From Candidatus Dasytiphilus stammeri (GTDB lineage Bacteria > Pseudomonadota > Gammaproteobacteria > Enterobacterales > Enterobacteriaceae): a DNA stretch of 64,000 nt. A model generated the notes under the pieces. That model was not told where the DNA came from and ran no database searches. It worked only from the letters and a program-made list of their open reading frames with translations. Within the stretch, counting starts at the first letter, position 1. The number at the start of each line of letters is the position of its first letter. Position numbers and translations under genes: made by a program. The stretch covers positions 171,752 through 235,751 of the forward strand of contig CP145873.1 of NCBI GenBank assembly GCA_041941865.1, given 5' to 3'. This document shows, one piece after another, positions 2,073 to 63,539 of this stretch.

Positions 2073-2300
2073 ATGCCCATTATAAAAGTTCGTGATAATG
2101 AACCATTTGATGTAGCACTTCGACGTTTTAAGCGTTCTTGCGAAAAAGCAGGTATATTATCGGAAGTTCGTCGAAGAGAATTTTATGAAAAACCTACTAC
2201 TCAACGAAAACGCGCAAAAGCATCTGCTATTAAAAGACTTTCTAAAAAATTATCACGTGAACAATCACGACGTATACGTATACATTATATTAAATCATAA
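2073..2300 (+). CDS. rpsU: 30S ribosomal protein S21
   Basis: [42 protein letters not shown] is near-identical to E. coli S21. A GAGGAAG Shine-Dalgarno sequence lies at 2061-2067. Confidence 0.97.
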
Positions 2301-2350: not shown

Positions 2351-4107
2351 ATGTTTCGACATATTCCATATTCATTTATTCAAAATTTATTAAGTCATAT
2401 TGATATAGTAGAACTTATTCAATCTCATTTATCCTTACAAAAGGTAGGAAAAAATTATCGATCATGTTGTCCTTTTCATAAAGATAAAAATCCTTCCTTT
2501 ACAGTGAGTAGAGAAAAACAATTATTTTATTGTTTTGGATGTCGTGAGCATGGTAATTCTATTGATTTTATTATGCATTTTGAAAAATTAAATTTTATTG
2601 AAACAATTGAAGAATTAGCTAAGATTTATGGTTTTACAATTCCATACGAATCTAGTGATTTATTATCTAATTTTACTATTCAGCGTCGAGAATATTTTTT
2701 TAAGATGATGCAAATCATATGTGAATTGTATCAAAAATCTTTATTGCATAAAACTCTCAACGCTATTCAAGCTAGAGAATATTTGAAAAAAAGAGAGATT
2801 AATGGTAAAATTATTCAAGAATTTTCGTTAGGTTTTGCTCCTTCTAGTGGAACTACAGTAAAAAAATATTTTGAACAATATTATCCTAACGATATTCATT
2901 TGTTAAAAGAATTAGGAATTTTATCTATAAATGAAAAAAATGATTTTTTTATAAATAGGATAATGTTTCCAATTCGAGATAAAAGGGGAAGAGTTATGGG
3001 TTTTGGAGGAAGAATATTAAACGATTTTCATTCCAATACTAAATATTTAAATTCTCCTACTACAAATATTTTTAATAAAGGAAAACAATTATATGGATTA
3101 TATGAATTATATAAGAAATGTGCTAAACCTTCTAAAATTTTAGTAGTAGAAGGTTATATGGATGTAATTTCTTTGGTAAAAAATGGTATTGAGTATACAG
3201 TTTCTTCATTAGGAACATCAACATCAATAGATCATATTCAACTTTTATTTCGTAATACGGATAATGTTATTTATTGTTATGATGGAGATCATGCAGGAAG
3301 AAAAGCTGCTTGGAAAGCACTCAATATAGCATTACCATATATGGTAGACGGACGACAATTAAGTTTTATGTTTTTACCTGAAGGAGAAGATCCTGATAGT
3401 TTAATACGTAAAGAAGGAAAAAATCTTTTTGAAAAAAGAATATTACGTGCTTATTCTCTATCCGAGTTTATATTTCAATTTTTTTTACAACAGGTAAATA
3501 TTTCTACTGCTGAAGGTAAAGCTAAATTTATTACCTTAGTGCGACCCTTAATTAATAAGATTCCTAGTAAAATATTACAGTTTTCTATACAATCGGTTTT
3601 AGGTAAAAAATTAGGTTTCTTTGAGTCAAAAATATTCAAATTAATATATAATTCAACATTACCCAGACTAAAATCTTCTAATATTTTATATATAAAAAAA
3701 AAAGAAGTAAAATGCGAATACTGCTAAGTTTATTAGTACAAAATCCACATTTTTCATTATTAGTACCAGAATTAACATTTTTAAATAATTTGAAAATAAA
3801 TGGATGGAATATTTTTGTAGAACTAGTAGAACAATGTAAAGCTTGTCCTAAAATCACTACTGGATATTTATTAGAACAATACCGAAATAAAAATTTAATA
3901 AAAACTCTTGAAATATTAGCTTATTGGGACCACATGATTAATGATGAATATTTAGAAAAAACATTTCAAGATTTACTAACTAGTATCTATGAATGTGCTT
4001 TACAACAACGTCAAGAAAAACTGCTTTCTGGAGAAAGAACTCAAGGATTAACTATTGAAGATAAACATGAGTTATGGTTTTTAAATAAAACGTTAGCAAA
4101 AAAATAA
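2351..4107 (+). CDS. dnaG: DNA primase DnaG, interrupted by a frame change at an A10 tract (ORF 2351-3727 = zinc-finger/TOPRIM core; ORF 3712-4107 = DnaB-binding C-terminal domain)
   Basis: The N-terminal ORF carries CCPFHKDKNPSFTV..YCFGC and EGYMDV. The second ORF, MRILLSLLVQNPHFSLLVPEL...LWFLNKTLAKK, aligns with the E. coli DnaG C-terminus (MRTLIGLLVQNPELATLVP...LWTLNQELAKK). Together they give ~580 aa, against 581 aa in E. coli. Confidence 0.9.
3694..3703 (+). repeat. A10 homopolymer at the dnaG frame break (candidate transcriptional-slippage or -1 frameshift site)
   Basis: Sequence is tatAAAAAAAAAAgaag. The second frame is open only from 3682 and the first frame stops at 3727, so the frame switch must occur within 3682-3727. 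One extra A joins the two ORFs as IKKKRSKMRILL. Confidence 0.8.
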
Positions 4108-4225: not shown

Positions 4226-4375
4226 ATGAATTATAATTTTTAGTATCAATTAAAAAGTCTTGTTAGTTTCTGGAGAGAATAAGGATATTTAACATATGCG
4301 GAAATAAATAAGTATCTTTTACAGTCAAAATTCAATATCAATTATATTATAAATATAGTTCCATTCATTAATAAG
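4226..4375 (+). other. rpoD: rpoD 5' segment (sigma70 region 1.1 equivalent), in frame with the rpoD ORF but carrying two nonsense codons (TAG 4241-4243, TAA 4280-4282)
   Basis: The translation is [48 protein letters not shown]. It aligns without gaps to E. coli RpoD residues 1-50 (MEQNPQSQLKLLVTRGKEQGYLTYAEVNDHLPEDIVDSDQIEDIIQMIND). Confidence 0.75.
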
Positions 4376-6025
4376 ATGGGTATTCCAGTTATGGAAAAAA
4401 AACCAGATGAAAATATACAGTTATTGAAGAATATTTCAACTACAAAAAAAAATAAACATGTCAAAATCATTGTTGAAGATAATAATAAAAAAGATCTTAC
4501 AACAGATCCCGTTCGGATATATATGCGAGAAATGGGAAATGTAGAATTATTAACACGTGAAGGAGAAGTGGATATCGCTAAACGTATTGAAGAAGGATTT
4601 AACCAAGTTCAATCTTCATTAGGTGAATATCCTGAAGTAATTTCATCTTTTTTGTACCAATATGATCAGTTAAAAAGTAATAATCTGAATCTTAAGGATC
4701 TAATTATAGGTTTTAAAGATACTGAAATAGTAACAGTGCCTACAAAAATTAAAATGACTAATAATTTTTTAGCTAAACATAAAGATCTAGATAAAGTGCT
4801 AGATTATGAAAATAATATTGATCCAGTGGTTGCATGTAAAAAATTTACTACCTTGCGAGATCAATATGAAAAAACTTCTGCAATAATTAATAGTAAAGGT
4901 CGAGAACATAGTGATTCTGTTCAAGAAATAAAAAATCTATCAGAGATATTTAGTACATTTAGGTTAATGCCTAAAATTTTTATTCAATTAGTAAAAAATA
5001 TCCGTTCTATTATGGAGAAAATTCGTGTACAAGAACGTATAATTATGAAACTTTGTGTAGATCAATGTAATATGCCTAAAAAAATTTTTATTTTCTTATT
5101 TACTGGTAATGAAAGTAATGAAAATTGGCTCAAAAATGCCTTATTAAGAAAGGATCGTTGGGCAAAAAATTTACATAGAGTTACTACTAAAATAGTCACT
5201 AGTCTTCAAAGTTTAGTAAAAATTGAAAAAGAAACAGGTTTAAGTATTGAAAATATAAAAGATATTAATCGACGGCTGACAATTGGTGCAGCAAAAGCAG
5301 GTAGAGCAAAGAAAGAAATGATTGAAGCAAATTTACGTCTAGTCATTTCAATAGCTAAAAAATATTCCAATAGAGGACTTCAATTTTTGGATATTATTCA
5401 GGAAGGAAATATTGGATTAATAAAAGCTGTAGATAAATTTAATTATCGTCTTGGATATAAATTTTCTACGTATGCTACCTGGTGGATTCGACAAGCTATA
5501 ACTCGATCGATAGCAGATCAAGCTCGTACTATACGTATTCCAGTACATATGATCGAAACTATCAATAAATTAAATAGAATTTCTCGTAAAATGTTACAAC
5601 AAATAGGTCGAGAACCTACATCAGAAGAATTATCCGAACAAATGTTAATGAGCGAAGACAAAATTCGGAAAGTATTAAAAATTGCAAAAGAACCTATTTC
5701 GCTAGAAACTCCAATTGGAGAGAATGCTAATTCTCATTTAGGCGATTTTATTGAAGATACTAATATTAAAATGCCTTTTGAATGTGCTAGTTATGATAGC
5801 TTACGTTGTTCAACTCAGTTAGTATTAACGGGATTACCTACCAGAGAATGTCAAGTATTAAAGATGCGTTTTGGAATTAATTTGAATACAGATCATACTT
5901 TAGAAGAAGTAGGAAAAAAATTTGATGTCACACGAGAACGTATAAGACAAATAGAGGCAAAAGCATTACGAAAATTGCGGCATCCAAGTAGGGCTGATAT
6001 TCTAAAAGATTTTTTAGAAGATTAA
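4376..6025 (+). CDS. rpoD: RNA polymerase sigma-70 factor RpoD (intact ORF starts at the equivalent of E. coli Met51)
   Basis: 549 aa. Regions 1.2-4 are highly conserved: [97 protein letters not shown]. Confidence 0.93.
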
Positions 6026-41468: not shown

Positions 41469-44333
41469 TTATCTTAATGGATAAGAGGTACATAAATTTT
41501 TGTCTCCAAATATATCATTTAGTCGTTTGACAGGCGGCCAATATTTATTATTTTTTATTTTTAACGGAAAAAATGCTTGTTTTATACTATAAGCATGATT
41601 CCATTTTTCTGTAAGTTCGTCTTGAGTATGTGGTGCATTAATTAGAGGATTATCATCGAGTGGCCAGTAACCTTTTTCTATAAAATTAATTTCTTGACGT
41701 ATAGATATCATTGCTTCAAGAAAATTATCTATTTCAATTTTATTTTCTGATTCTGTTGGTTCAATCATCATTGTTCCTGGCACAGGAAAAGATATTGTAG
41801 GTGCATGAAATCCATAATCTATAAGACGTTTAGCAATATCTAATTCTCCAATACCTAGTTTAAATTTTAAAGGACGGATATCAATTATACATTCATGTCC
41901 TACAAGGTTATTACGTCCTGTATATAATATAGGATATGATGAAGTTATTTTTTTAGCAATATAATTAGCATTGAGTATTGCTATTTCACTAGATAATCTT
42001 AATCCTTTGTGACCCATCATACGAATATACATCCAACATATAGGAAAAAGTGATGCACTACCAAAAGGAGCTGCAGATACTGCACTCTGAGAATTTATTA
42101 ATCCCTTAATTTGTATTATTTTATGACCGGGTAAAAAATTAATGAGATGTTTTTTCACTCCAATAGGACCTAATCCCGGACCTCCTCCACCGTGAGGAAT
42201 ACAAAAAGTTTTATGCAGATTAAGATGAGCAACATCTGCACCAATAGTACAAGGATTAGTAATTCCTAATTGAGCATTCATATTAGCACCATCTAGATAA
42301 ACTTGTCCTCCATTATCATGAATAAGTTGACATATTTGAGGAATGTTTTCTTCGAATAGTCCATAAGTAGAGGGATAAGTTATCATTAAACAACTTAAAT
42401 TCTTTCCTGATTGCTCTATTTTACATAGTAAATCATTTAATTCAATATTACCATAATTATCACACTTAATAGGAATTACCTTCATTCCCACCATTGTTGC
42501 TGAAGCTGGATTAGTTCCATGAGCTGAATTAGGTATAAGACATATATTACGATTGTTTTCATTTCTACTTTCATGATAACGGCGAATGGTTAAAAGACCA
42601 GCATACTCTCCTTGAGCACCAGAATTAGGTTGGAGACTAAAGGCGTTATATCCAGTTAATAATTGTAACCAATTACATAACTGATGTATTAATTTGACAT
42701 AACCTTTTATTTGATTCTTAGGACAAAAAGGATGAATTTCACAAAATTCTGGCCAACTAAGTGGAATCATTTCTACGGCAGCATTGAGTTTCATAGTACA
42801 CGAACCCAATGGAATCATTGAATAATTAAGAGCGATATCTTTACATTCTAGTGTATGGAGATAACGCATCATAGCTGTTTCACTATGAAAACTATTAAAA
42901 ATAATATGAGTTAATATATCTTCAGTACGTAATAAGTCTAAAGGTAAAGATATACTTGAATTTTGTTGTTTGATATACTGATCTATTATAATTGGATCTA
43001 ATCCATGTCCATCTTCTAAAAAGATAGTAAATAATGTCATTATATCTTGCCGAGTAGTAGTTTCATCTAAAGTGATACCTACAGCGTGATTAAGATCAGA
43101 GCGTAAATTGATTCCTAATTTTAGAGCACGTAATAATATATTATTTTTATTTTCTACTTTAATAGTTAGAGTATCAAACCAAGTATGATGCAATAACTTC
43201 AATCCTCCAATTTGTAAACCTACAGCTAAAATATCTGTTAAACGATTTATGCGAGTAGCAATTTTTTGTAATCCTTTAGGACCATGATAAACCGCATAAA
43301 AACCGGCTATTATAGCTAATAAAGCCTGTGAAGTACAAATATTAGAAGTAGCTTTTTCTCGACGAATATGCTGTTCTCTAGTTTGTAGAGCCATTCGAAA
43401 AGCAATATTTCCTAATTTGTCTCGCGAAACTCCTATAATACGTCCAGGCATAGATCGTTTATATTCTTCGCGAGTAGCATAAAAAGCTGCATGAGGTCCT
43501 CCATATCCCATTGGAAGACCAAATCGTTGTGCAGAACCAAAAACTATATCTGCTCCCTGTGTTCCGGGACCTTTCAAAATAACTAAAGACATGAGATCTG
43601 CAGCTACACTAATAATAATTTGTTTCTTTTTTAGTTTAGCTATTAAAGATGTAAAGTTATGTATTTTTCCGGTCGTACCTATATATTGGAATAATATTCC
43701 AAAAATTTGATTTTGATAAATCAGAGCATTATCAGGATTATCTATAATAATGTCAATTTCTAACGTACTAGCTCTAGTTTTTATGACATCTATAGTTTGG
43801 GGGTGCACATCATTAGCTATGAAAAATTTATTATTTTTTATTTTACTAATCCGTTTTGACATAGACATAGCTTCTGCCGCTGCGGTAGCTTCATCTAATA
43901 AAGAGGCAGAAGCTATAGGTAGTCCTGTTAAATCTACAGTAATTTGCTGAAAATTAAGTAATGCTTCTAATCGTCCCTGAGAAATTTCTGGTTGATATGG
44001 AGTATAAGCAGTATACCATCCCGGATTTTCTAATACATTACGTAAAATTACTTGAGGAAGTATAGTTCCATAATAACCCATTCCAATTAAAGATTTAAAA
44101 ATTTTATTTTTTTTAGCAATCATTTTTAATTCTGATAAAGCTACATGTGCTGGTACTGCATCACACAGATTAGGAATATTTGTTAGCTGGATTTCTGGAG
44201 GAACTACAGCAGAAATTAATTCCTTAAGAGAAGACATTTTGATTGTAGATAACATAGATTTTTGTTGGTTCCCAGATGGACCAATATGTCTTAATATAAA
44301 GTTATCTTCTAGATGATTTAAAGATTTTATCAT
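41469..44333 (-). CDS. gcvP: Glycine dehydrogenase (decarboxylating), glycine cleavage P protein
   Basis: 954 aa. It has [22 protein letters not shown] and the PLP-lysine region [16 protein letters not shown]. Confidence 0.96.
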
Positions 44334-44362
44334 ATTCTGGAAATAATATTGATTATTGAAAA

Positions 44363-44752
44363 TTATTGAAGGTTTTTTTGATAATCACTTGCATTTAATA
44401 ATAAATCTAGCTCATAATCTTTCCAAGATTCGATTTTGAATATCCATCCCTGGTCATATGGATTAGTATTAACTAATTCTGGATTATTGTTTAATAAGAT
44501 ATTAATTTCTATAATTTTTCCAGTAAGTGGTGCATATATGCTACTAGCAGTTTTAACTGATTCAGCTACAGCACATTCTTCGCCAATATTAAAAATTGTA
44601 TTAACTATAGGTAATTCAATAAATACTATATCTCCGAGTAATTTTTGTGCATAATCAGTAATACCAATAATATAAATATTCGATTGCAGGGATATTCGTT
44701 GTACCCATTCATGACTGGGTCGGTATTTATAATTACTGATAATTTTGGTCAT
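44363..44752 (-). CDS. gcvH: Glycine cleavage H protein (lipoyl carrier)
   Basis: 129 aa. The lipoyl-lysine motif [15 protein letters not shown] is present. Confidence 0.95.
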
Positions 44753-58406: not shown

Positions 58407-59543
58407 ATGGCAAAAAAAGATTATTATGAAATTTTAGGCGTTTCGAAATCAGCAGATGAACGAGAAATTAAAAAAGCCTATAAACGATTAGCTATGAGAT
58501 ATCATCCGGATCGTAATCCGGGTAATAAAGATGCAGAAAATAAGTTTAAAGAAGTGAAAGAAGCATATGAAATATTAACTGATTCTCAAAAAAGAGCGTC
58601 ATATGATCAATATGGACATGCTGCATTTGAACAAGGTCAATCAAATTATGAAACTGAATTTAGTACCTCTACTACTGATTTTAGTGAAATTTTTGGAGAA
58701 GTATTTGGAGATATTTTTGGAAGTAATCGTCGTCAACAACGCGCTGCTAGAGGTGCTGATTTACAATATAATATTAGTCTGACTTTAGAAGAAGCTGTTC
58801 GGGGGATCACAAAAGAAATCTGTGTTCCAACATTTGAACAATGTTCTTTTTGTCAAGGAAAGGGTTGTAAATTAGGAACTACTCCAGGAAAATGTTCACC
58901 TTGTCAAGGAAAAGGTAAAATTCACTTACGTCAAGGATTTTTTACTGTGCAACAAACTTGTCCCTATTGTCAAGGACAAGGTACAATTATTAAAGATCCA
59001 TGTTTATCTTGTCGAGGACAAGGAAAAATCGAAAAAAATAAAATTATCTCAGTAAAAATTCCTGCTGGAGTAGATAATGAAGATCGTATTCGGTTATCAG
59101 GAAAAGGATCAGCAGGCGAGGGTGGATCTCCATCCGGAGATTTATATGTTCAAATTGCAGTAAAAAAACATCCTATTTTTGAAAGAGATAAAAATAATCT
59201 GTATTGTGAGGTTCCCATTAGTTTTGGTATGGCTGCTCTAGGAGGAGAAATAGAAGTTCCTACTTTAGGTGGACGTATCAAAATTAAAATACCGGCAGAA
59301 ACTCAAACTGGAAAACTATTTCGGATGAGAGGAAAAGGAGTAAAATCATTACGAGGAGGATTTACAGGAGATTTATTATGTAAAATTGTAGTTGAAACTC
59401 CGGTTAATTTAAATGAGAACCAAAAAAGAATGTTACATGAATTAGAGAAAACTCTGAATTATCATTCAGGAGAACAGAATAGTCCCCGATCAAGAACTTT
59501 TTTTGAAGGTGTAAAAAAATTTTTTGATGATCTAACTCGATAA
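58407..59543 (+). CDS. dnaJ: Co-chaperone DnaJ (Hsp40)
   Basis: 378 aa. It has the J domain [35 protein letters not shown] and four CxxCxGxG zinc-finger repeats. Confidence 0.97.
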
Positions 59544-59829: not shown

Positions 59830-60213
59830 GGTTGAATATCCTTAATTGTTTTTTTAAAAAAAAAAGTATGCAGTATTGTTTTAGTTTATCAATTTTCTTT
59901 TATAAGATACAATAATATTTTGATGGATAAAAATTATTATTTAATATCAGAAATACAATTATTCATAATTAGTTATATACTTTTTAGACAAAATTCTTTC
60001 AAAGACATTAAATAACTTTTTTTCCTCCAAGAGTAATTATAACTTAATCAATATTAGTAATTATTTTACATGAATTAATAATAAAATTATAGAAAATTAT
60101 TAATTTTTCTTTACACTAAAAAAATTAATAAAAATATATGTTAAGTAATATAATATTAATTATGTTAGTGTAAATAGTTCAATTTGTTTAATACAAGAGA
60201 TTATAAATTTTTC

Positions 60214-63039
60214 ATGAAAAATGATTTTAAATCAACATTAAATCTTCCTACCACTAATTTTTCAATGCGAGCAAATCTTGCTCAAAAGGAACCTAAGATA
60301 CTTCAAAAATGGGATCAAGATAATCTTTATCAATTAATTCGTTCTGCTAAAAAAGGAAAACCGTTATTTATTCTTCATGATGGTCCTCCATATGCTAATG
60401 GATCTGTTCATATGGGTCATGCAGTGAATAAAATTCTTAAAGATATTATTATTAAATCAAAAGGTTTATGTGGTTTTGATTCCCCATATATTCCTGGGTG
60501 GGATTGTCATGGATTACCTATTGAATTAAAAGTAGAACAAATTTTAGGAAAACCAGATCATAATACAGTAACAGCAGAAAATTTTAGACAAGCCTGTCGT
60601 TCATATGTAATAGAACAAGTTAATATTCAAAAACAAGATTTTATCAGAATGGGAGTAGTAGGAGATTGGAAAAATTCATATCTGACTATGGATTTTTCTA
60701 CTGAAGCTAACATAATAAGATTATTAGCAAAACTAATTTCTCAAGATTATATTCTTCGAGGTTATAAACCAGTATATTGGTGTATTAAATGTGAATCTGC
60801 ATTATCAGATGCAGAAGTAGAATATGAAGTAAAATTTTCACAGGCTATTGATGTAGTTTTTTATGTAAAAAATAGAGAAAAAATTAAATCTATATTTAAG
60901 GTAGATAATGTTATAGGTCCTATTGGATTAGTTATTTGGACTACTACTCCATGGAGTTTACCAGCTAATAAAGCAGTGGGAGTTCATCATGATGCATATT
61001 ATCAACTAATACAAATTACAGATAAGGCTATAATTATAGCCAAAAATTTAAGAGATCAATTTTTACATCGCATAAATATCCAGAACTGGAAAGTCATAGG
61101 GGAAGTTTCTGGAAATGAACTAGAATACCTTCACTTACATCATCCTTTTATGAATTATGATATTCCTATAGTATTATCCAACCATGTAAGTTTAAAAGAT
61201 GGAACTGGAATTGTGCACATAGCTCCCAGTCTTGGACTAGAAGATTATATAGTTGGATGTAATTATCAACTTAATTTAGCAAATATAATTGAACCTAATG
61301 GTACCTATAAATATAATACTTATCCTGATTTAGATGGCATTTTAATATTTCAAGCTAATCCAATTATTATAAATATTCTCCTCAAACAAAAAATTTTATT
61401 AAAAATAGAAAACATTCAGCATAGTTATCCCTATTGTTGTAGACATAAACAACCTATTATTTTTCGTACCACTAGTCAATGGTTTCTTAATATAGAACAC
61501 CAACAGCTCCGAAAAAATTTAGTAAACCAAATAAGTAAAATACAATGGCACCCCAAATGGGGAAAAAATAGAATGAGTAATTTACTGACTTCTAGACCAG
61601 ACTGGTGTCTTTCTCGACAACGTACTTGGGGGATTCCATTGCCTTTATTTATTAATCCAAATAATGGACAGTTACATCCAAATACTTTATCTATAATAGA
61701 TAAAGTAGCAAAATCAGTAGAAGATAAAGGTATTCAAGCTTGGTGGGATTTAAGTACTGCATCTTTAATAGGAGAAAATGATGCTCAAAAATACATAAAA
61801 GTATTAGATACGCTGGATGTATGGTTTGATTCTGGTTCTACTCATATAAATTTTTTAACAAAATTTTCTCACCAACCAAAAATAGAGCAGGTAGATCTTT
61901 TTTGTGAAGGGTCTGATCAATATCGAGGATGGTTTATGTCTTCCCTAATAATTTCTACCATTATAAATAATCAAGTACCTTGTAAAAATATATTAACACA
62001 TGGTTTTGTAGTAGATAGTCAGGGAAAAAAAATGTCTAAAAGTTTAGGTAATACTATTAGTCCTAAAGAGATAATGAATAAATTTGGTAGTGATATTCTT
62101 AGATTATGGATTGCGTCTACAGATTATACTCGGGAAATAGTTTATTCTCAGGAGAGTATTAATCGTTCTATAGATATTTATCGTCGTATTCGTAATACAG
62201 TACGTTTTTTATTAGCAAATATAAATGATTTTGATCCTAATATTCACCTAGTAAAATTACAAAATATGATAGGATTAGATCGATGGATGCTCGAAAAAAC
62301 ACAAATTACCCAAGATAATATTATTACTGCTTATGAAAATTATGACTTTCATAAAGTAGTTCAAAATTTAATGCAATTTTGTTCATTAGAACTTGGTTCT
62401 TTTTATCTAGATATAGTTAAAGATAGACAGTATACTAGTCAAAAAAATAGTTTATTACGACGTAGTGGTCAAACCACTATGTTCTATATACTAGAATTTA
62501 TGGTACGATGGTTAGCTCCTCTTATATCTTTTACCGTAGATGAAATCTGGGGTATGATTCCTGGAAAACGATCTAAATATGTATTTACAGAAGAATGGTT
62601 TTCTCAATTATATTTTAATCAAGATAATTTTATTGATACTTCTTTCTGGAAAGATTTAATTATTATTCGTAATGAAGTGCACAAAGTTCATGAATTAATG
62701 CGAGCTAATAACAAAATTAAGGATTTATTATCTTCAATAATTATATTATATGTATCTGACTTAATAGAAGAAAAATTAAAAAAATTAGGAGAAGAATTAA
62801 AATTTTTTTTAATGACTTCTAATACGAAAATTTTAACTTATGATCTAGCTCCAGAAGGAGCATATACAAGCGATAAAATAACAAATTTAAAGTTTATTTT
62901 ATATAATGCTCCAGGTAAAAAATGTCTGCGTTGTTGGCATTATACAAAAGATATAGGAAAACATGTTAATTTTCCTGATATATGTAGTCGATGTGTAATA
63001 AATATAATAGGACCAGGAGAAACACGTTTTTTTGTATGA
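60214..63039 (+). CDS. ileS: Isoleucine--tRNA ligase
   Basis: MKNDFKSTLNLPTTNFSMRANL starts at ATG 60214; the listed ORF begins at a TTG ten codons upstream. It has PPYANGSVHMGHA (HIGH), KMSKSLGN (KMSKS) and a C-terminal Zn-binding CxxC pair. Confidence 0.96.
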   Translation: MKNDFKSTLNLPTTNFSMRANLAQKEPKILQKWDQDNLYQLIRSAKKGKPLFILHDGPPYANGSVHMGHAVNKILKDIIIKSKGLCGFDSPYIPGWDCHGLPIELKVEQILGKPDHNTVTAENFRQACRSYVIEQVNIQKQDFIRMGVVGDWKNSYLTMDFSTEANIIRLLAKLISQDYILRGYKPVYWCIKCESALSDAEVEYEVKFSQAIDVVFYVKNREKIKSIFKVDNVIGPIGLVIWTTTPWSLPANKAVGVHHDAYYQLIQITDKAIIIAKNLRDQFLHRINIQNWKVIGEVSGNELEYLHLHHPFMNYDIPIVLSNHVSLKDGTGIVHIAPSLGLEDYIVGCNYQLNLANIIEPNGTYKYNTYPDLDGILIFQANPIIINILLKQKILLKIENIQHSYPYCCRHKQPIIFRTTSQWFLNIEHQQLRKNLVNQISKIQWHPKWGKNRMSNLLTSRPDWCLSRQRTWGIPLPLFINPNNGQLHPNTLSIIDKVAKSVEDKGIQAWWDLSTASLIGENDAQKYIKVLDTLDVWFDSGSTHINFLTKFSHQPKIEQVDLFCEGSDQYRGWFMSSLIISTIINNQVPCKNILTHGFVVDSQGKKMSKSLGNTISPKEIMNKFGSDILRLWIASTDYTREIVYSQESINRSIDIYRRIRNTVRFLLANINDFDPNIHLVKLQNMIGLDRWMLEKTQITQDNIITAYENYDFHKVVQNLMQFCSLELGSFYLDIVKDRQYTSQKNSLLRRSGQTTMFYILEFMVRWLAPLISFTVDEIWGMIPGKRSKYVFTEEWFSQLYFNQDNFIDTSFWKDLIIIRNEVHKVHELMRANNKIKDLLSSIIILYVSDLIEEKLKKLGEELKFFLMTSNTKILTYDLAPEGAYTSDKITNLKFILYNAPGKKCLRCWHYTKDIGKHVNFPDICSRCVINIIGPGETRFFV

Positions 63040-63539
63040 AAAATATTAATTTTTATTTTCCTTACTTATGGATTATATCCAGTATATTTTGTATAGATTT
63101 TTTTAGTAAACAATGGATTAAATATTATTTTAATTTGAAAGAAAAAGTATGGTTTTATCCTGAAATTAATATTTTATATACTTCTCATTATGGTAGTTTT
63201 TTTAGTTATTTAGTAGCTAAAAATAAATTTCTCTATTGGTTTTGGATAATAATTATCCTATTTATTATAATATTATTACTAATAATCATTGCTAGAAATT
63301 CCAATAACCTGGATTATTTCTGGAATAATATAGCTTTAGCACTAATAGTTGGTGGTGGATTAAGTAATTTATCTGATCGTATTATATACGGATCTGTAAT
63401 TGATTTTATTCATTGTTTTATTATGAAATGGAATTTTTTAACCTTTAATATCGCAGATATATCTATTTGTATAGGTGGATTTTTAATGATTTTATTAGAG
63501 ATAAAATTTAATCTCTATTTATTGACGAGAAGAAGTTAA
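63036..63539 (+). CDS. lspA: Lipoprotein signal peptidase II
   Basis: Start taken at ATG 63036 (an ATGA overlap with the ileS stop), giving 167 aa against 164 in E. coli. [19 protein letters not shown] and FNIADISI motifs are present. Confidence 0.9.

Follow-up and report, generated by a model that had tools for sequence, protein, structure and literature searches.

Frameshifts within poly(A) tracts are established in Buchnera and Blochmannia, where the affected genes are otherwise intact. They are sometimes conserved between species, and transcriptional slippage is held to rescue the genes (work of Tamas et al., 2008, and Wernegreen et al., 2010, as related in PMC3017870 and PMC4389277). Frameshifted genes of this type number four to eight per Blochmannia genome (PMC4389277). 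The published cases include the primase gene dnaG of Blochmannia vafer, which is frameshifted in a homopolymer and for which rescue by slippage has been proposed (Williams and Wernegreen, 2010, PMC3017870). We describe here a dnaG gene of this kind in Candidatus Dasytiphilus stammeri, found in a 64,000-nucleotide stretch of its genome (hereafter the window; contig CP145873.1 of assembly GCA_041941865.1, positions 171,752 to 235,751 of the forward strand, renumbered from 1 below). The primase core and the helicase-binding domain of DnaG lie in different frames that meet at a run of ten A residues (A10). We consider it probable that this is a functional gene carrying an old, fixed one-nucleotide frameshift, with the full-length product restored by slippage in part of its transcripts.

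A first-pass annotation of the window had pointed to slippage rescue in insect endosymbionts as a precedent, and the published record extends that precedent to dnaG itself (PMC3017870). Like the B. vafer gene, the Dasytiphilus gene belongs to an AT-rich obligate insect endosymbiont and has a single poly(A)/poly(T) indel in an otherwise intact reading frame. The B. vafer gene shows no rate acceleration, and its frameshift has been discussed as a possible means of lowering primase dosage; the figure of about 30% corrected transcripts was measured for endosymbiont genes other than dnaG (PMC3017870). The two frameshifts are of independent origin, and that of B. vafer has been seen in one Blochmannia genome only, whereas at least five species-level lineages carry the one described here. 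The cases of Tamas et al. (2008) and Wernegreen et al. (2010), as PMC3017870 and PMC4389277 present them, resemble ours in that a frameshift in a long A run is conserved across populations or species without decay and a mixed mRNA pool has been proposed as the rescue. They differ from ours in being backed by cDNA evidence and in their hosts, which here are melyrid beetles. The sequence-level marks of the slippage-rescued class, namely an indel in the tract, purifying selection downstream of it and conservation among relatives, are all found at this locus. The case reveals no new mechanism, and both mechanism and gene have direct precedents; what is new is the host clade, how many lineages have the frameshift in common, and a clear polarity provided by intact sister clades.

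Two further systems bear on the comparison. Programmed transcriptional slippage operates in Thermus thermophilus dnaX, on a 9-nucleotide run, and in Shigella mxiE, and -1 ribosomal frameshifting operates in Escherichia coli dnaX, on the heptamer A_AAA_AAG. The dnaX type shares with our locus a 9- to 10-nucleotide A run in a replication gene, two products distinguished by a C-terminal domain, and a zero-frame slippery heptamer. In E. coli dnaX, however, an upstream Shine-Dalgarno sequence and a downstream stem-loop accompany the heptamer, neither of which we find at the dnaG tract, and the A_AAA_AAA of dnaG is a weaker ribosomal shift site than A_AAA_AAG (PMC5009743). In addition, the shifted product is the shorter one in the dnaX genes of E. 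coli and T. thermophilus and the longer one here. The second system is DnaG itself, which in E. coli, Geobacillus and Bacillus is cut by trypsin at a flexible hinge into fragments p49 and p16 (PMC5429622). The Dasytiphilus frameshift falls in this same hinge, although p49 and p16 are made in vitro and are not separately encoded. The hinge location probably explains how a mutable lysine-rich run could arise without harm to either domain.

A dnaG gene divided between two frames

The window is AT-rich, with 27.1% GC, and keeps the gene order tsaD / rpsU-dnaG-rpoD. Within it dnaG is spread over two open reading frames (ORFs), of which the second, ORF2, lies in the -1 frame relative to the first, ORF1 (coordinates in Table 1). 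ORF1 gives Pfam matches to Zn_ribbon_DnaG, DNAG_N, the Toprim families and DnaB_bind (PF10410), and ORF2 covers the DnaB-binding domain PF08278 completely (1-124 of 124). Summed across the two frames, all DnaG Pfam domains (zinc ribbon, primase/Toprim core and C-terminal DnaB-binding domain) are present, and the ORF coordinates together with these matches confirm the first-pass assignment of core and DnaB-binding domain to different frames. ORF2 aligns end to end with 1T3W, the structure of the E. coli DnaG C-terminal domain (E = 6e-32), and corresponds to residues 451-581 of that crystallised domain, its Met1 matching Met451. The same alignment sets the terminus LWFLNKTLAKK of the joined window DnaG against LWTLNQELAKK of 1T3W, a resemblance that had been remarked on earlier.

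The stop positions bear out the earlier statement that both frames are open together in one interval only and that this interval holds the A10 run: it is limited on the left by a stop of the ORF2 frame (TAA 3679-3681) and on the right by the ORF1 stop. After the tract, ORF1 ends in an out-of-frame tail of seven amino acids (aa), EVKCEYC, followed by TAA at 3725-3727. The reading would change to ...I K K K R S K M R I L... if the mRNA gained one A or if ribosomes slipped by -1 on A_AAA_AAA. Adding one A to A10 gives a DnaG of 585 aa, ...ILYIKKKRSKMRILLSLLVQNP..., that has the C-terminus LWFLNKTLAKK and no other defect, in agreement with the full-length protein of about 580 aa that had been anticipated from the two ORFs.

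We scanned one genome per GTDB species for relatives, and four loci were returned, all from Candidatus Dasytiphilus stammeri of beetles of the genus Listrus: Listrus sp. 00, 06, 04 and 02 (here Lsp00, Lsp06, Lsp04 and Lsp02). Their amino-acid identity to the window DnaG is about 72%. The window strain very probably belongs to a Listrus beetle too; its GC content, its closest relatives and the fact that it is not among these four loci point to Listrus sp. 01 as the probable host. The frameshift has the identical position and register in all four. The tract reads GTA10GAAG in Lsp00 and GTC-A9-GAAG (C+A9) in Lsp06, Lsp04 and Lsp02; over the five lineages, the tract lengths are A10, A10, A9, A9 and A9, and a run of at least nine A residues at the junction is conserved. 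The truncated ORF1s of the relatives were recovered in independent Logan gene calls (466, 466 and 458 aa; P0004-P0006), and the C+A9 tract of Lsp04 in an independent Logan ORF (L011). The zero-frame tail beyond the tract, which is 3, 7 or 10 aa long depending on the lineage, is conserved in neither length nor sequence.

Intact DnaG proteins of 581, 582 and 579 aa are encoded by Dasytastes-clade symbionts (genomes of 600,652, 589,892 and 592,705 bp), and one of 580 aa by the Psilothrix symbiont (CP145869.1, genome of 464,075 bp). The junction poly(A) is absent from both intact orthologues that we inspected as DNA, where the corresponding sequence is TTC AAA CAT ACA ACT ATG in the symbiont of Dasytastes sp. 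01 and ATA AAA TTA AAA TAT ACT CCA ATT in that of Psilothrix. On this comparison, with intact genes in both groups and neither of the inspected junctions carrying poly(A), tract and frameshift alike are derived features of the Listrus clade.

We considered whether the sequence downstream of the tract has behaved as coding sequence since the frameshift arose, using a codon alignment of the five lineages in which the two frames are joined at the tract. The ratio of non-synonymous to synonymous substitution (dN/dS) in the C-terminal part is 0.21-0.27 between the window and its relatives and 0.13-0.47 among the relatives, equal to or lower than the 0.24-0.44 of the N-terminal part, and in the C-terminal part synonymous differences greatly outnumber non-synonymous ones (Fisher p = 1e-8 to 9e-7). 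Across its 134 codons neither a stop nor an indel occurs in any lineage, whereas the same DNA has 10-23 stops when read in the two alternative frames. When neutral evolution was simulated with the third-position composition as observed, the frame stayed open in 1.2% of replicates if divergence was 10%, in 0.03% if it was 20%, and in none of 20,000 at the observed synonymous divergence. Conservation is strong immediately beyond the junction: in windows right after the tract the non-synonymous divergence is only 0.02-0.03, and the K-R-S-K-M that is read through the tract occupies the position of E. coli K-R-T-T-M. Decay as a pseudogene is essentially ruled out by the dN/dS values well below 1, the Fisher tests, the open frame and the simulations. 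Taken together, the dN/dS values, the open frame and the conserved residues after the tract indicate that the helicase-binding domain has been expressed and needed for the whole lifetime of the frameshift.

The tract itself appears to be genuine. The first-pass annotation had raised the possibility of homopolymer error and proposed examining the genomic support for A10 and the tract in related strains. Three independent read-set assemblies bear on the first point: Logan contigs from SRR27829352, SRR27829353 and SRR27829354, each assembled independently, match the window base for base, A10 included. On the second, all four Listrus loci carry A10 or C+A9 in the same register, as described above. 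Among the database matches there is no full-length version of DnaG from the window strain. Six other A9/T9 runs in the window (sense or antisense) all lie within intact ORFs of 256-958 aa, and a mechanical scan of the window for frame changes at homopolymers of at least 7 nucleotides returned dnaG as the only true case; by both measures the window has no sign of general homopolymer error. Because the three Logan assemblies agree, the relatives share the frameshift and the A9/T9 runs elsewhere lie in intact frames, a homopolymer assembly error at the dnaG tract is, on these data, very unlikely. The published Dasytiphilus genomes were obtained from Illumina reads with metaSPAdes, the exception being that of Listrus sp. 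02, which is a Nanopore assembly polished with Illumina reads (PMC11191362). The words dnaG, frameshift and pseudogene do not occur in the main text of this 2024 genome paper, and a passage of its supplementary gene table marks dnaG as present in every strain that it lists (PMC11191362).

Some further observations from these scans and searches may be recorded. The window holds two A10 runs, of which the dnaG tract is the sole sense-strand one within a long ORF. The other, at 59856-59865, is intergenic, between a 378-aa ORF (58407-59543) and a 951-aa ORF (60184-63039), and adjoins a T7 run: TTTTTTTAAAAAAAAAAG. Two other matches of the frame-change scan, at 60184-63539 (ORFs of 951 and 182 aa) and at 41469-44752 (954 and 129 aa), are not split genes; each is an ordinary adjacent gene pair. 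Our representative protein search, which did give the Psilothrix orthologue, returned none from Danacea or Dasytes sensu stricto, and a word-indexed protein search with a profile of the C-terminal domain missed even the known relatives. Public data also contain many stand-alone proteins of about 125-136 aa whose first residue is the conserved Met of the DnaG C-terminal domain (P0139-P0141, P0150, P0189, P0206, P0235 and P0264). Most of these resemble fragments of ordinary bacterial genes cut off at contig ends; at least one, P0139, has an extremely high lysine content and may derive from another reduced symbiont whose dnaG is truncated or split.

Probable slippage on the A run and competing explanations

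The proposed history of the locus begins in the interdomain linker, which was rich in lysine and arginine (ancestral ...K-R/H-T-T-M...) and in which AT-biased drift would have produced a succession of AAA codons. The common ancestor of the Listrus-clade symbionts would then have lost one A through replication slippage, and drift would have fixed the loss. Standard decoding of such a gene would yield a truncated primase core of about 458 aa with a short junk tail. RNA polymerase, however, would be expected to slip on an A9/A10 run that is at least as long as its RNA:DNA hybrid of about 9 bp, adding one A in a fraction of transcripts, from which a full-length DnaG of 585 aa would be made, helicase-binding domain included. 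A minor share of the same protein may come from -1 ribosomal slippage on A_AAA_AAA. Restoration of full-length DnaG by slippage on the A run is supported by its fit to the conservation and selection data and by the published precedents; the heterogeneous mRNA and the full-length protein are what we infer from it.

Of the two kinds of slippage, we favour the transcriptional, since the correction needed is exactly +1 A, the change typical of insertions in A/T runs. In Buchnera, insertions during transcription are overwhelmingly of single bases in A/T runs, at a rate that climbs steeply as the run gets longer (PMC5574713). On runs of nine A or T residues in vivo, bacterial RNA polymerase slips very efficiently, and on E. 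coli ribosomes A_AAA_AAA is reported to be far less shift-prone than A_AAA_AAG (PMC5009743). The heptamer A_AAA_AAA is present in the ORF1 frame of all five lineages, but signals that might stimulate a ribosomal shift were not found around it. Folding of the five-lineage alignment gave no conserved stimulatory hairpin 3' of the tract (-7.4 kcal/mol, 0 compensatory pairs). The longest predicted helix (19/30 pairs) starts about 24 nucleotides downstream, within the sequence coding for the LLSLLVQNP motif, which is conserved in intact orthologues too. Direct reading of the 30 nucleotides upstream of the tract, which are AT-rich in the window and divergent among the lineages, revealed no Shine-Dalgarno-like or GGAGG-like motif. 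In a sliding window, there was no excess synonymous conservation at the junction, where the proportion of synonymous differences (pS) is 0.4-0.6, compared with a gene mean of 0.36.

Several considerations weigh against restoration by slippage. It is inferred from DNA, and three of the five lineages have only A9, which is the lower edge of efficient slippage. Traverse and Ochman saw no frame-restoring transcription error in Buchnera (PMC5574713). A +1 reversion, in a tract expected to be indel-prone, is seen in none of the five lineages, and an extra assumption is therefore required, that A10 and A11 alleles differ little in fitness. We suggest that RNA polymerase would produce a mixed transcript pool from either allele, so that selection between them would be weak; this is the simplest account of the lack of reversion. 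DnaG is required in few copies. Finally, the selection data would fit equally well with a C-terminal domain that is translated alone.

This last point leads to the possibility of a two-polypeptide primase, in which the ORF1 core and the ORF2 domain would be separate proteins acting in trans, with ORF2 translated from ATG 3712 by termination-reinitiation or by leader-independent initiation. Such a primase would explain the purifying selection on ORF2 just as well. The first-pass annotation had raised reinitiation at this codon, for which we find no specific support. All five lineages have the ATG, which overlaps the 3' end of ORF1 and in the window lies 13 nucleotides ahead of the ORF1 stop. 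The stop follows 22 nucleotides downstream of the ATG in Lsp00, Lsp06 and Lsp04, and in Lsp02 it shares bases with the start (ATGA); such start/stop arrangements can permit translational coupling, and the A-rich stretch before the ATG is unstructured. The conservation of the codon is nevertheless uninformative on initiation, since the Met is ancestral, being Met451 in E. coli and present in the intact orthologues as well. Nor does its context set it apart. The Shine-Dalgarno pairing before ATG 3712 is -1.3 kcal/mol, weaker than the -2.9 kcal/mol of the median true start in the window and at the 43rd percentile of internal ATGs, and no dedicated ribosome-binding site for ORF2 can be distinguished from internal ATG contexts. 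With separate polypeptides the tract length would also be unconstrained, yet no fixed indel occurs in the five lineages. In E. coli, the C-terminal domain must tether the primase core to the helicase, and Tougu and Marians reportedly found in the 1990s that DnaB-dependent priming is not restored when p49 and p16 are supplied as separate fragments. On balance, we consider a two-polypeptide primase unlikely.

We also considered whether the out-of-frame state has itself been selected, as programmed recoding. Here the out-of-frame A9/A10 would fix how much helicase-independent core is made relative to full-length DnaG, or would throttle primase dosage, across the Listrus-clade Dasytiphilus, in the manner of the tau and gamma products of dnaX with the polarity reversed; if true, this would be a dnaX-like two-isoform system for primase. 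The register has been kept in five lineages even though a single +1 insertion would restore the frame, and the dnaX genes of some bacteria do make their longer product by a shift (PMC5009743). Lysine triplets (KKK) encoded entirely by AAA seem to be avoided elsewhere, in that 91% of Lys codons in window ORFs of at least 200 aa are AAA, yet only 2/7 triplets are all-AAA (binomial p = 0.012), although this statistic comprises seven cases only. However, programmed recoding would have to work without stimulatory signals and without synonymous constraint, and with a zero-frame tail that varies in length and sequence. The Dasytastes-clade and Psilothrix Dasytiphilus do with an ordinary intact gene, and Blochmannia shows a like pattern through frameshifts that are fixed by drift and tolerated by slippage (PMC3017870). 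We hold this explanation to be quite improbable. One of the two all-AAA triplets is the dnaG tract itself. Sense-strand A runs of 6, 7, 8, 9 and 10 residues in the window number 109, 61, 24, 6 and 1, which suggests, in what is a small sample, selection against long coding A runs even in a 27% GC genome.

Artefact or decay, in which the tract length is wrong and the gene intact, or dnaG is a recent pseudogene with an unused C-terminal domain, is highly improbable: homopolymers are error-prone and the Listrus sp. 02 genome derives from polished Nanopore reads (PMC11191362), but the remaining genomes are Illumina/metaSPAdes, the Logan assemblies agree for the window strain and its relatives, the frameshift is common to five lineages, A9/T9 runs elsewhere sit in intact ORFs, and the dN/dS well below 1 and the open frame exclude decay.

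Slippage-restored dnaG in the Listrus-clade symbionts would have several implications. An essential replication gene that is still under selection, although its frameshift has persisted while at least five symbiont lineages diverged, provides a clean comparative example, and this beetle symbiont clade would join those of ants and aphids as a system where slippage at homopolymers buffers the decay of genomes. The A10 and A9 alleles, together with the intact sister clades, constitute a natural test of how much slippage suffices for an essential enzyme of low abundance. For annotation, the locus is a caution, in that automatic pipelines would label dnaG a pseudogene or two genes.

Feature coordinates and neighbouring genes

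Table 1. Coordinates of dnaG, its junction and the flanking genes in the window.
Feature	Position	Strand	Description
dnaG ORF1	2351..3727	+	458 aa; zinc ribbon, primase/Toprim core, helical PF10410 subdomain, interdomain linker
Double-open interval	3682..3727	+	sole stretch with the ORF1 and ORF2 frames both open
A10 tract, putative slippage site	3694..3703	+	zero-frame codons ATA AAA AAA AAA GAA
dnaG C-terminal DnaB-binding domain	3703..4107	+	-1 frame, AGA 3703-3705 to TAA 4105-4107
ORF2	3712..4107	+	131 aa; mechanical start ATG 3712 = E. coli Met451
rpsU (ribosomal protein S21)	2073..2300	+	gene 5' of dnaG, conserved rpsU-dnaG-rpoD order
rpoD (sigma-70)	4376..6025	+	gene 3' of dnaG, conserved rpsU-dnaG-rpoD order

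The 5' region of rpoD is unusual. The longest ORF begins MGIPVME, near E. coli residue 52, and lacks the Pfam domain Sigma70_r1_1, which is present in the Dasytastes and Psilothrix orthologues. Upstream of this ORF, an in-frame reading that resembles sigma-70 region 1.1 extends over 4226-4375 and is interrupted by two in-frame stops, TAG 4241-4243 and TAA 4280-4282. The Listrus-clade relatives have Gln at these positions, as does the symbiont of Dasytastes sp. 01 at the second, and region 1.1 reads intact in the four Listrus-clade relatives. The 5' sequence is confirmed by a Logan contig (L005). From these comparisons, it looks like a lineage-specific loss of region 1.1 through two C-to-T nonsense changes. 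Recoding of the stop codons seems unlikely because other genes end normally.

On the other side of dnaG, the rpsU product is 75 aa in the window and 71 aa in the Dasytastes and Psilothrix symbionts, a difference that, as read from the sequences, is a small C-terminal extension or a shifted stop.

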